Below, one piece after another: positions 45,946-46,782 of a stretch of DNA of 57,962 nt. This stretch comes from Candidatus Nomurabacteria bacterium (lineage in GTDB: Bacteria > Patescibacteriota > Minisyncoccia > Phycocordibacterales > SBAW01). The notes under the pieces were generated by a model that had not been told where the DNA came from, did no database searches, and was given only the letters and a program-made list of their open reading frames with translations. Position numbers and translations under genes: made by a program. Each line of letters starts with the position of its first letter. Positions within the stretch are counted from its first letter, which is position 1. The stretch is from the NCBI GenBank assembly GCA_943349675.1, contig CALQZN010000001.1, positions 1-57,962 of the forward strand, given 5' to 3'.

Positions 45946-46782
45946 ATGGCTACTTTTGACCGACTCTACCAAGACATACTCGGTCAAATCCTCAAAAAAG
46001 GCATCCGCGAACAGTCAGAGCGTACGGGGCACGAAACGGCAGCACTCCCCGGGCTCCACTTTTCTATCGACATCGAAAAAGATGGTTTCCCTCTTTTGAC
46101 GTTGCGGAAAATTCCCATAAAGATGTTTGTGGCGGAGCAGATATGGTTTATTGCTGGTACGCGCAAACCAGCAGATTTTTTACGCGATTATACAAAAATT
46201 TGGGACAGCTTTACCAACCCCGCAGACGTCGTGACAGTTGCCTACGGCTACAGGTGGCGCAAACACTTTGGCCGCGACCAACTAGGTAAACTCATTGACC
46301 TACTTAAAAAAGAACCGAGCTCGAGGCACGGCGTTATTATTACCTGGGACCCCGCAAGTGATGGACTCAGTTTGTTTAAAAAGAAAAATGTTCCTTGCCC
46401 GTATTCTTTTACCGTAAACATTATTGGAGGCCGACTCCACCTCCACAATATTGTGCGTTCAAACGACATGGTGCTGGGCTTCCCTGCTGATGTTGCCGGG
46501 TTTGCCTTGCTGCAGTGCATCTTGGCGCAAAAACTTGGCGTGAAGGTTGGCGTGTATTCACACTCAATCTCTAACGCGCACATATACGACAACCAGTATG
46601 TTGCAGTAAAAGAACTCTTGAAACGCAAAACTACACACAAACCAATTCAGGTTAGCATGCCAAAAAACGCATTCGACCGTGCAGAAAAAAAGGACCGAAA
46701 GCTTGCAGCAGAGTTGGTTGCCAGTTTTGAAAATCAGTACACTCCCCTGCCAGCAATTTCTGGATTACACGTTGTTTTATAA
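45946..46782 (+). CDS. thymidylate synthase (ThyA) family enzyme with Asp at the substrate-specifying Asn position
   Basis: ThyA-family motifs are ERTGHET, IWD, YGYRWR, SSRH, VPCP (catalytic Cys), VRSNDMVLGFPADVAGFALL and AHIY. D182 (46489-46491) aligns by eye with E. coli ThyA N177. Confidence 0.8.
   Translation: MATFDRLYQDILGQILKKGIREQSERTGHETAALPGLHFSIDIEKDGFPLLTLRKIPIKMFVAEQIWFIAGTRKPADFLRDYTKIWDSFTNPADVVTVAYGYRWRKHFGRDQLGKLIDLLKKEPSSRHGVIITWDPASDGLSLFKKKNVPCPYSFTVNIIGGRLHLHNIVRSNDMVLGFPADVAGFALLQCILAQKLGVKVGVYSHSISNAHIYDNQYVAVKELLKRKTTHKPIQVSMPKNAFDRAEKKDRKLAAELVASFENQYTPLPAISGLHVVL

Follow-up and report, generated by a model that had tools for sequence, protein, structure and literature searches.

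The window, a stretch of 57,962 nucleotides from a Candidatus Nomurabacteria bacterium, carries two divergently oriented groups of genes for nucleotide and folate metabolism. On the reverse strand lie the genes for a serine hydroxymethyltransferase (SHMT, 42978..44243, PF00464, E = 5.7e-147), which regenerates methylene-THF, a small MazG-family NTP pyrophosphohydrolase (44305..44643, PF03819, E = 2e-10), a dTMP kinase of the M. tuberculosis TMPK type (Tmk, 44653..45354, PF02223, E = 5e-18), and a divergent zinc deaminase of the dCMP-deaminase type (45371..45859, PF00383, E = 5e-12). The forward strand holds a thyA-dcd-folA operon. Its first gene (45946..46782) encodes a ThyA-fold protein predicted, from its PF00303 match, residue signature, and AlphaFold2 model, to be a dCMP C5-methyltransferase yielding 5-methyl-dCMP and DHF. 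It is followed, 5 nt past its stop codon, by the gene for a Dcd-family protein (dCTP deaminase/dUTPase fold, 46788..47429, PF22769, E = 8e-36) and, last, by that for a dihydrofolate reductase (DHFR, 47432..47929, PF00186, E = 2.9e-46). A sequence scan found an intrinsic-terminator-like hairpin with a 16-bp stem and a T-run (47929..47964, forward strand) that closes the operon. The 86 bp that separate the deaminase gene from the ThyA gene (45860..45945) are presumably a shared control region; a simple scan detected no promoter consensus in them.

We examined the same neighborhood in 80 related species genomes, whose loci were found with a narrower ThyA alignment. The deaminase gene divergently adjoins the ThyA gene in 79 of them and the Dcd-like gene lies directly downstream in 77, while an SHMT gene (67/80) or a DHFR gene (54/80) is found within 6 kb. 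The first-pass annotation, made from the window alone, had described the DHFR gene as co-operonic with the ThyA gene, and both this linkage and the strong terminator at the operon end bear it out. Deaminase-TS linkage has been described as a mark of cytosine-modifying phage systems (70% vs 6%; bioRxiv 10.1101/2024.12.05.627091).

The open reading frame at 45946-46782 encodes a protein of 278 amino acids, and our translation is identical to the protein quoted in the first-pass annotation. Residues 8-250 match Pfam PF00303 (Thymidylat_synt, E = 4.6e-53). AlphaFold2, given an alignment of 100 sequences, predicted a full-length TS fold with a mean pLDDT of 96.5 (a model from 27 close homologs reached a pLDDT of 57 and was set aside), and Foldseek aligned this model to the E. 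coli and L. casei TS with TM-scores of 0.80-0.87. The top Foldseek matches are methylating TS, and PDB 1NJC, the laboratory N229D "dCMP methylase", is among both the sequence and the structure matches; neither T4 dCH nor MilA appears among the best 50 structural matches. The best structural matches, the public name of the protein (thymidylate synthase), and a TIGR03284 score above the cut-off (124 bits against 108) would all suit an ordinary thymidylate synthase. Against this, the protein scores only 108-144 bits with NF002497/6/5/9, far under the cut-offs of these four NCBIfam ThyA equivalog models (325-405).

The active site differs from that of ordinary thymidylate synthases at the residue that reads the base. 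In the HMMER alignment to solved TS, the segment GFPADVAGFALL places Asp182 (codon GAT, 46489..46491, forward strand) on E. coli Asn177 and L. casei Asn229. MAFFT, run on the protein together with E. coli ThyA, T4 gp42, and Xp12 TS, puts it in the same column; the equivalent in T4 gp42 is Asp179. The first-pass annotation had proposed this replacement from a hand alignment, and both alignments confirm it; the T4 gp42 string that it had quoted (VNMRSNDVVFGFRNDYAW) also proved exact. The other residues that it had listed are all present, namely Arg26, Glu64, Tyr100, Arg127, Cys151, Arg171/Ser172/Asp174, and His212/Tyr214, which correspond to E. coli Arg21, Glu58, Tyr94, Arg126, Cys146, Arg166/Ser167/Asp169, and His207/Tyr209. 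The protein thus shares with canonical ThyA (E. coli, L. casei; EC 2.1.1.45) the full-length fold, the catalytic Cys with Glu58 and Tyr94, Arg21/126/166, Asp169, and His207/Tyr209, and the linked DHFR implies the same reductive chemistry.

Unlike canonical ThyA, the protein combines Asn177 to Asp with His147 to Pro (Pro152), Trp83 to Phe (Phe89), and Arg127 to His, the last being the only replacement among the catalytic TS residues checked; His147 and Trp83 belong to the active-site network of canonical TS. In E. coli numbering, its signature is F83/H127/P147/N168/D177. The His147 of canonical TS reads the O4 of dUMP, and positions 177 and 147 are the best separators of cytosine-modifying and ordinary phage TS (PMC8670742); the roles of positions 143 and 147 have been described (PMC13326640, PMC8670742). 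Position 143 is a non-acidic Asn148 in our protein, within the "KNVPCP" motif that carries the catalytic Cys (codons N148-V-P-C151-P152, 46387..46401, forward strand). The motif is identical in Xp12 TS and Mallos TS, and N148, P150, and C151 are invariant across the wider ThyA alignment.

Asp is found at position 177 in all 120 of the closest homologs in the databases and in each of the 80 related species genomes, all of them Parcubacteria/Paceibacteria-group Patescibacteria, so that Asp182 reflects neither chance nor a sequencing variant. Parcubacteria/Paceibacteria-type Patescibacteria as a whole conserve the Asp form, which is not a one-off. Among ~110 diverse cluster representatives, Asp177 is coupled to H147P, W83F, and R127H/Q. 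The publications that mention a Patescibacterial thyA handle it as an ordinary gene, and our literature search on Asp-type ThyA, dCMP methylation, or ThyX in Patescibacteria returned nothing relevant. The ThyX motif was absent from the ~1 Mb of retrieved loci, a result that describes these loci only and has no bearing on whole genomes.

In BLASTP searches, the ThyA-fold protein scored 159-173 bits with the Xp12 family, 102 bits with E. coli ThyA, and 39 bits with T4 gp42. The first-pass annotation had also asked for a phylogenetic placement among the ThyA relatives; in a neighbor-joining tree, which is a crude method, the common ancestor of our protein and Xp12 TS excludes every Asn-type sequence in 98/100 bootstraps. 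Bit scores and bootstraps together support the shift of specificity toward dCMP that it had suggested from the Asp. The Xanthomonas phage Xp12 TS (QNN97214.1) and its Bradleyvirinae/Pamexvirus-type relatives are deoxycytidylate 5-methyltransferases (EC 2.1.1.54). Besides "KNVPCP", our protein has in common with Xp12 TS the residues Asp177, Pro147, and Phe83, a near-identical "AYGYRWRxHFGRDQL" motif, and a TS-like C-terminal tail (YTPLPAISGLHVVL), with 34-37% identity to the Xp12 family overall. Both genes are linked to a DHFR, a dCMP-type deaminase, and a MazG gene (a MazG/PRA-PH pyrophosphatase in Xp12). Unlike Xp12 TS, it has His instead of Arg at 127 and Asn instead of Ser at 168, and it is encoded by a conserved chromosomal core gene of a cellular bacterium, in a cluster that also has SHMT, Tmk, and a Dcd homolog without the Glu.

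Xp12 TS has been reported to make 5-methyl-dC, and when tested in E. coli, Xp12 TS and five of seven metagenomic Asp-type TS gave 5-methyl-dC, while two of the seven Asp-type phage TS gave none in the assay (bioRxiv 10.1101/2024.12.05.627091). Asn to Asp at 177/229 is credited with having turned both enzymes, that of E. coli and that of L. casei, into dCMP methylases (Liu and Santi 1992; Hardy and Nalivaika 1992, as cited), and the natural Patescibacterial protein resembles the laboratory N229D variant. We considered which dCMP product the protein could make, several being known in the ThyA superfamily (PMC13326640). Its Asp177 and its "RSND" string are both common to T4 gp42, the dCMP hydroxymethylase, which would fit 5-hydroxymethyl-dCMP or 5-hydroxy-dCMP as the product, or even a ribonucleotide substrate as for MilA. 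The first-pass annotation had taken "RSND" for a gp42-type variant, a view that did not hold, as the string is not diagnostic: it also occurs in the Asn177-type sequences P0205 and P0218, and the Xp12 type reads "RSSD".

Hydroxymethylases carry Asp or Glu at position 143, and 5-hydroxy-dCMP synthases carry Asn at position 169 (PMC13326640). Our protein has Asn at 143 and keeps Asp at 169 (Asp174) rather than the Asn of the RB69/DLP3-type synthases, so it is probably not a 5-hydroxy-dCMP synthase. T4 gp42, unlike our protein, has Asp143 and Thr147, lacks the C-terminal tail, and produces no DHF, which the DHFR linkage implies here. The low BLASTP score with gp42, the placing of T4 dCH and MilA outside the best 50 structural matches, and the conservation of the deoxyribose-contacting His212/Tyr214 further argue against these other activities, to which we give a very small chance. 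Asp at 177, a non-acidic 143, Asp at 169, the TS-like tail, and the linked DHFR instead lead us to predict a reductive dCMP C5-methylase, and the last four of these features support the methylase-type, DHF-producing reaction that the first-pass annotation had preferred to hydroxymethylation.

The Dcd-like neighbor has also lost its key residue. The catalytic Glu of Dcd is E138 in E. coli and E129 in M. tuberculosis. Alignment to Dcd structures sets the "TLPIRNN" of our protein on "TLEL", with Pro138 (codon 47199..47201, forward strand) at the catalytic Glu. This position is Pro in 72/72 loci and 120/120 homologs, and P138 is invariant in the alignment of Dcd-like homologs. With the Glu always replaced by Pro, the Dcd-like protein is predicted to be unable to deaminate, and the usual dCTP to dUTP/dUMP supply would be disabled exactly where ThyA carries its Asp. 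Like Dcd and Dcd:dut, the protein has the Dcd fold, a Dcd segment at its N-terminus, and two nucleotide-binding motifs ("RSS..R" and "R..Q"), and it scores above the TIGR02274 cut-off. It differs from them by the Pro, by a lysine-rich C-terminal extension, and by being always paired with an Asp-type ThyA. We predict that it is a nucleotide pyrophosphatase that turns dCTP into dCMP or clears dUTP, a hydrolase role that is putative because the general-base Asp of monofunctional dUTPases ("IDSGY") is missing as well. One paper on the dUTPase superfamily (PMC5519681) contained no data on Glu-less bifunctional Dcd variants. A T4 gp56-type dCTPase was considered for the Dcd-like protein and rejected, as gp56 adopts the all-alpha dUTPase_2 fold and shares no homology with it; the gp56 analogy fits the MazG gene. 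The MazG protein matches the PHROG MazG-like family (E = 8.5e-32), and the closest relative with a solved structure is dCTP pyrophosphatase 1 (DCTPP1, PDB E = 4e-4).

The deaminase family conserves the H[AS]E and (P)CxxC motifs, and its profile best matches the dCMP deaminases 4P9C, 2HVV, 1VQ2, and 2W4L. We propose that it catalyzes the step from 5-methyl-dCMP to dTMP. An assignment to the Xp12/mSCD type was rejected (BLASTP E = 0.16, profile E = 0.008), the cluster deaminase belonging to a different subfamily from the Xp12/mSCD deaminases. The order of steps would nonetheless be that of the proposed Xp12 route with its mSCD-B5-type 5mC-selective deaminases, in which the base is methylated first and then deaminated and the TS and deaminase genes are adjacent. 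That route is known from phages only and its characterized enzyme uses triphosphates, whereas the Patescibacterial deaminase is of a separate subfamily and lies on a bacterial chromosome. The one characterized phage deaminase acts on 5-methyl-dCTP and not on the monophosphate (bioRxiv 10.1101/2024.12.05.627091). The dTMP kinase in the Patescibacterial cluster suggests deamination at the monophosphate level. Compared with 1G3U, the window kinase keeps R74 and N100, which contact thymine O4/N3, and in Kaiserbacteria (CP066682.1) a different, E. coli-type Tmk occupies the same slot. As two non-orthologous dTMP kinases fill this slot and R74 and N100 are kept, the output of the module appears to be thymidylate.

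The same genes could serve DNA modification if 5-methyl-dCMP were also phosphorylated and incorporated, so that 5mC would replace some or all of the chromosomal C in a cellular counterpart of Xp12, with the MazG and Dcd-like proteins depleting dCTP. The set of MazG/PRA-PH-type pyrophosphatase, Asp-type TS, deaminase, and DHFR does parallel that of the Xp12-family phages, whose DNA is fully 5mC. The Glu-less Dcd-like protein and the DCTPP1-like protein could both be dCTPases, and the three-gene core of TS, deaminase, and Dcd-like protein occurs on phage-like contigs. We nevertheless judge this reading decidedly improbable. The kinases of the cluster are dTMP kinases only, of two unrelated types and with the O4/N3-contact residues kept in the window copy, and no dedicated 5-methyl-dCMP kinase was seen in the cluster. 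Several lineages have a GC content of 50-58% (taken from assembly names), which is not suggestive of heavy 5mC to T decay, and to our knowledge full replacement of C by 5mC has no precedent in any cellular organism. Unlike in Xp12, the likely purpose in Patescibacteria is thymidylate supply and not the replacement of C in DNA.

Taken together, these observations make it somewhat probable, on residue signatures and by analogy with phages, that thymidylate is made here by the route dCTP to dCMP to 5-methyl-dCMP to dTMP, avoiding dUMP, with a ThyA-fold enzyme specialized for dCMP. The catalytic Cys151 would attack C6 of the pyrimidine, and Asp182 would hydrogen-bond and protonate cytosine N3/N4, where an Asn would read uracil N3-H/O4. 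Methylene-THF would then give the carbon and the hydride, yielding 5-methyl-dCMP and dihydrofolate. Upstream of this dCMP methylation by ThyA-Asp, the Glu-less Dcd-family protein, the DCTPP1-like MazG protein, or both may convert dCTP to dCMP or clear dUTP; downstream, the adjacent dCMP-type deaminase would convert 5-methyl-dCMP to dTMP and Tmk would form dTDP, while DHFR and SHMT would recycle the folate. Residue identities, synteny, conservation, and the placement in the family are observations; which substrate and product the enzyme has, in what order the steps run, and what each neighbor does are inferred from them.

The gene set itself (dCMP deaminase, dUTPase-like protein, ThyA, DHFR, SHMT, and Tmk) is also the content of an ordinary Gram-positive-type dUMP pathway. 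Since that pathway has the same genes, the case for methylation before deamination rests on the active-site signatures and on the phage analogy. An ordinary dUMP-specific or dual-specificity TS despite its Asp, working in a standard thymidylate operon in which the deaminase turns dCMP into dUMP and the Dcd-like dUTPase turns dUTP into dUMP, would agree with this canonical dCMP-deaminase-type gene content, with a Tmk that shows a thymidylate end product, and with catalytic TS residues kept except at 177, 147, 83, and 127. We think it unlikely, as the Asp is invariant and comes with the loss of the O4-reading His147, the Dcd partner specifically lacks the deaminase Glu, the tested natural Asp-type relatives make 5-methyl-dC (bioRxiv 10.1101/2024.12.05.627091), and the Asn to Asp change, in the work cited above, converted both the L. 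casei and the E. coli TS to dCMP methylases.

ThyA or ThyX acting on dUMP is regarded in textbooks as the universal cellular route to thymidylate. Methylation followed by deamination has until now been put forward for phages alone, namely those whose DNA is fully methylated, and the adjacent deaminase and Glu-less Dcd turn a single-residue oddity into a prediction at the level of a pathway. If the dCMP route is correct, thymidylate synthesis bypasses dUMP in a large, abundant group of bacteria, and thousands of Patescibacterial proteins annotated as "thymidylate synthase", "dCTP deaminase", and "deaminase" are wrong in substrate or activity. For these symbionts, metabolic reconstructions would have to be revised with respect to the uracil-in-DNA load, folate dependence, and the requirement for dUTPase and uracil-DNA glycosylase. 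The dCMP methylase and putative 5-methyl-dCMP deaminase would also form a natural, co-evolved pair of biotechnological interest, and nucleotide-modification modules would have been functionally exchanged between phages and ultra-small hosts.

The host of the cluster is a cellular Patescibacterium, and ThyA-Asp is one of its resident core genes, as indicated by an identity across lineages of 69-96%, comparable with that of L11 and NusG, and by housekeeping flanks. We give next to no chance to the view that the cluster is a phage island or prophage, acquired recently and standing outside host metabolism, even though its closest relatives beyond the group are on phage-like contigs that also carry this deaminase and a Pro-type Dcd. 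The window consists of housekeeping DNA (RecA, FtsK, aaRS genes, rplK-nusG-secE) of even GC content, and phage genes are missing around the cluster, which is present in 80/80 species genomes from many lineages and combines ribosomal-protein-like conservation with variable flanks. The viral scan with the narrower ThyA alignment yielded one locus, its patterns being too specific. The 19 Glu-type Dcd loci that a viral scan turned up (L094-L112) showed no TS. The three-gene core of Asp-type TS, deaminase, and Pro-type Dcd is also found on phage-like contigs, where the cluster deaminase subfamily adjoins the Asp-type TS; on the viral contigs L090 and L093, the Pro-type Dcd occurs together with the Asp-type TS and the cluster-type deaminase.

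The open reading frame at 45946-46782 (+) encodes a 278-aa protein, identical to the one quoted in the first-pass annotation and matching Pfam Thymidylat_synt with an E-value of 4.6e-53. In HMMER alignments, its segment GFPADVAGFALL pairs with a 12-residue segment of solved thymidylate synthases (TSs), which places Asp182 (codon GAT, 46489-46491) at the position of E. coli Asn177 and L. casei Asn229. A MAFFT alignment to E. coli ThyA, whose numbering is used hereafter, agreed, confirming the earlier claim that Asp replaces the dUMP-specifying Asn177 in this protein (ThyA-Asp). 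The catalytic Cys, Arg, Tyr, and His/Tyr are retained as claimed (Cys146, Arg21, Arg126, Arg166, Tyr94, and His207/Tyr209), as are Glu58, Trp80, Ser167, and Asp169; the further substitutions are His147→Pro, Trp83→Phe, Arg127→His, and Cys168→Asn. A structural model, proposed as a check in the same annotation, was built with AlphaFold2 from a 100-sequence alignment (mean pLDDT 96.5) and has the TS fold along its full length (TM 0.80-0.87 on E. coli and L. casei TS).

We compared ThyA-Asp with 150 representatives of the 50%-identity clusters nearest to it. About 110 of them carry Asp177 (Asp-type), mostly with Pro147, Phe83, and Gln, His, or Arg at 127, and the Asn-type sequences retain His147, Trp83, and Arg127. 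Xanthomonas phages Mallos and Xp12 have TS homologs that fall in the Asp-type set. ThyA-Asp scores 173 and 159 bits against these homologs, more than against E. coli ThyA (102 bits) or the T4 dCMP hydroxymethylase gp42 (39 bits), and has two strings in common with the phage proteins: KNVPCP, which surrounds the catalytic Cys, and AYGYRWR(K/R)HFGRDQL. The phylogenetic placement, also suggested earlier, was made by neighbor-joining only: ThyA-Asp and Xp12 TS have a common ancestor without any Asn-type sequence in 98 of 100 bootstraps, and the position of gp42 is unstable. Three homologs (P0259, P0269, and P0252) have Asp177 in an otherwise canonical-looking TS (Trp83, Arg127, and, in one, His147) and lie among Asn-type TSs in the tree, which suggests independent Asn→Asp switches. 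Another Asp-type homolog, P0124 (466 aa; 7001-8401 of the 47-kb contig L091), has an N-terminal extension of ~190 aa.

The L. casei and E. coli TSs became dCMP methylases upon the Asn→Asp change at position 177/229 (Liu and Santi 1992; Hardy and Nalivaika 1992; cited in PMC8670742 and PMC13326640). In phage metagenomes, cytosine-modified contigs are told apart best from unmodified ones by positions 177 and 147 (PMC8670742). Xp12 TS formed 5-methyl-dC in E. coli, as did five of seven Asp-type TSs from metagenomes (bioRxiv 10.1101/2024.12.05.627091). The product correlates with position 143, where a bulky or non-acidic residue goes with methyl and Asp or Glu with hydroxymethyl, and also with position 169, where Asn goes with 5-hydroxy-dCMP (PMC13326640). 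Position 143 is Asn in ThyA-Asp and Xp12 but Asp in gp42, position 169 of ThyA-Asp is Asp, and its TS-like C-terminal tail is absent from gp42. Together with the linked DHFR gene, these sequence features predict that ThyA-Asp is a reductive dCMP C5-methylase.

Asp177 was present in all 120 closest database clusters (73–100% identity), and those with a named source come from Kaiserbacteria, Parcubacteria, Paceibacterota, or Minisyncoccia. A prokaryotic scan with one genome per species returned relatives in 298 genomes; the best 80 of these 298, which we examined, are all Patescibacteria (Kaiser-, Adler-, Nomura-, Taylor-, Vogel-, Colwell-, and Campbellbacteria, among others), and 80/80 have Asp177, with a ThyA-Asp identity (69–96%) on par with that of L11 and NusG from the same loci. 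The window has the content of an ordinary bacterial chromosome (RecA, FtsK, several aminoacyl-tRNA synthetases, type IV pilus genes, rplK-nusG-secE), its GC content is even, and no phage genes were found within it. Asp177 is a family trait of this cellular lineage. Our literature searches found no paper noting an Asp-type ThyA in Patescibacteria; where work on this group mentions thyA, it is taken to be canonical. A ThyX motif was not found in the ~1 Mb of fetched loci, a sample of loci that is uninformative at genome scale.

The thyA(Asp) gene is followed, after a 5-nt gap, by a Dcd-like gene (46788-47429 (+)) and folA, encoding DHFR (47432-47929 (+)), and a terminator with a 16-bp stem (47929-47964) closes the operon. 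The divergent upstream genes encode a dCMP-type deaminase (45371-45859 (-)), a dTMP kinase (Tmk, 44653-45354 (-)), a small MazG-family pyrophosphatase (44305-44643 (-)), and SHMT (42978-44243 (-)). Within 6 kb of ThyA-Asp in the best 80 of 298 genomes, the deaminase was found in 79, the Dcd-like gene in 77, SHMT in 67, DHFR in 54, a Tmk of the window's type in 31, and MazG in 20. The flanks vary by lineage, with purine biosynthesis genes in the complete Kaiserbacteria genome CP066682.1. There, a 205-aa nucleotidyltransferase-like gene (8840-9457 (+) of locus L006), whose only Pfam matches are weak ones to aminoglycoside-2''-adenylyltransferase and NTP_transf_5, separates ThyA from the Dcd-like gene.

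The Dcd-like protein scores above the cut-offs of the dCTP deaminase profiles and carries that name in annotation. Its 'TLPIRNN', however, pairs with 'TLE(L/F)' of the B. halodurans, M. tuberculosis, and E. coli Dcd, so that Pro138 takes the place of the catalytic Glu (E. coli E138). With this Glu missing, we rejected a dCTP deaminase identity. All 72 orthologs in the fetched genomes have the Pro, as do 120/120 database homologs; the family is probably misannotated under the deaminase name in public databases. Since the nucleotide-binding motifs RSSxxR and RxxQ are retained and the general-base Asp of monofunctional dUTPases is Gly, as in Dcd enzymes, we read the protein as a putative nucleotide pyrophosphatase or nucleotide-binding partner. 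Conversion of dCTP to dCMP is the most economical guess for its activity, with dUTP clearance as the alternative. Members of the family (the window; fetched loci L009-L088, L090, and L093) are also extended at the C terminus by a Lys-rich stretch that ends in 'GDIKKLKKDF'.

The deaminase retains H[AS]E, CxxC, and a second Cys/His cluster, and the best matches of its family profile are dCMP deaminases (cyanophage S-TIM5, 4P9C; S. mutans; T4 Cd; human DCTD). Membership of the Xp12/mSCD subfamily was rejected on sequence and profile comparison. For the window's kinase, the best alignment is to M. tuberculosis TMPK, in which Arg74 contacts thymine O4 and Asn100 contacts N3; both equivalents are kept. 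In Kaiserbacteria CP066682.1 (L006/L051, 6856-7470 (-)), the Tmk encoded at this slot, between the SHMT and deaminase genes, is instead an unrelated one of the E. coli type (E = 8e-36 to 4TMK), a non-orthologous displacement. The recruitment of two different dTMP kinases to one slot indicates that the end product of the cluster is thymidylate. That the kinases of the cluster act on dTMP disfavours a bolder idea, in which 5-methyl-dCTP would also be formed and would enter the DNA. The sole solved relatives of MazG are dCTP pyrophosphatase 1 (DCTPP1) entries (E about 4e-4), and DCTPP1 hydrolyzes dCTP and 5-methyl-dCTP.

The most coherent reading of the cluster is a thymidylate pathway that methylates and then deaminates. 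The Dcd-like protein and/or MazG would convert dCTP to dCMP, ThyA-Asp would methylate dCMP to 5-methyl-dCMP with formation of DHF, deamination would yield dTMP for phosphorylation by Tmk, and DHFR and SHMT would recycle the folate. The formation of thymidine nucleotides from deaminated 5-methyl-dC nucleotides has been proposed for phages with such TSs, whose adjoining 'dCMP deaminases' include a 5mC-selective enzyme (bioRxiv 10.1101/2024.12.05.627091). The main alternative, that ThyA-Asp still uses dUMP in an ordinary dCMP-deaminase-type pathway, is compatible with the gene content alone. Three features speak against dUMP use: Asp177 is invariant and His147 is lost, ThyA-Asp groups with proven dCMP methylases, and the Dcd-like protein has correspondingly lost its deaminase Glu.

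The nearest non-Patescibacterial ThyA relatives (44–54% identity) sit on phage-like contigs, one of which (L090) carries a terminase and several of which carry HNH endonuclease, helicase, and NrS-1-type primase-polymerase genes. The deaminase adjoining these TSs belongs to the Patescibacterial subfamily (profile E 1e-24 to 1e-41), and two of the contigs, L090 and L093, also encode a Pro-type Dcd-like protein. Asp-type TS, deaminase, and Pro-type Dcd thus form a coherent three-gene module common to phages and Patescibacterial chromosomes. Among the 19 Dcd-like loci returned by a scan of a viral collection (L094-L112), all retain the Glu, and no TS was seen near the Dcd-like genes. On L090 and L093, the module stands alongside NrS-1-type primase-polymerase/AAA_25, HNH homing endonuclease, and helicase genes, with a chaperonin-like and an SPFH protein in addition on L093. 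These two contigs may come from phages that infect Patescibacteria and whose DNA might be modified.

Elsewhere in the window, two ORFs lack a Pfam match, at 7527-10046 (-) (839 aa) and, among the type IV pilus genes, at 31586-33064 (-) (492 aa). The 378-bp gap between IleRS and ArgRS (39792-40169) has short ORFs only, in place of the GcrA-like gene (PF07750, 179–195 aa) found there on related contigs L003-L005. The 1116-aa isoleucyl-tRNA synthetase (36441-39791 (-)) has a phosphoglycerate-mutase-like histidine-phosphatase domain (PF00300, 'RHGE') inserted at about residues 505–690, an architecture shared by its orthologs on L003-L005.
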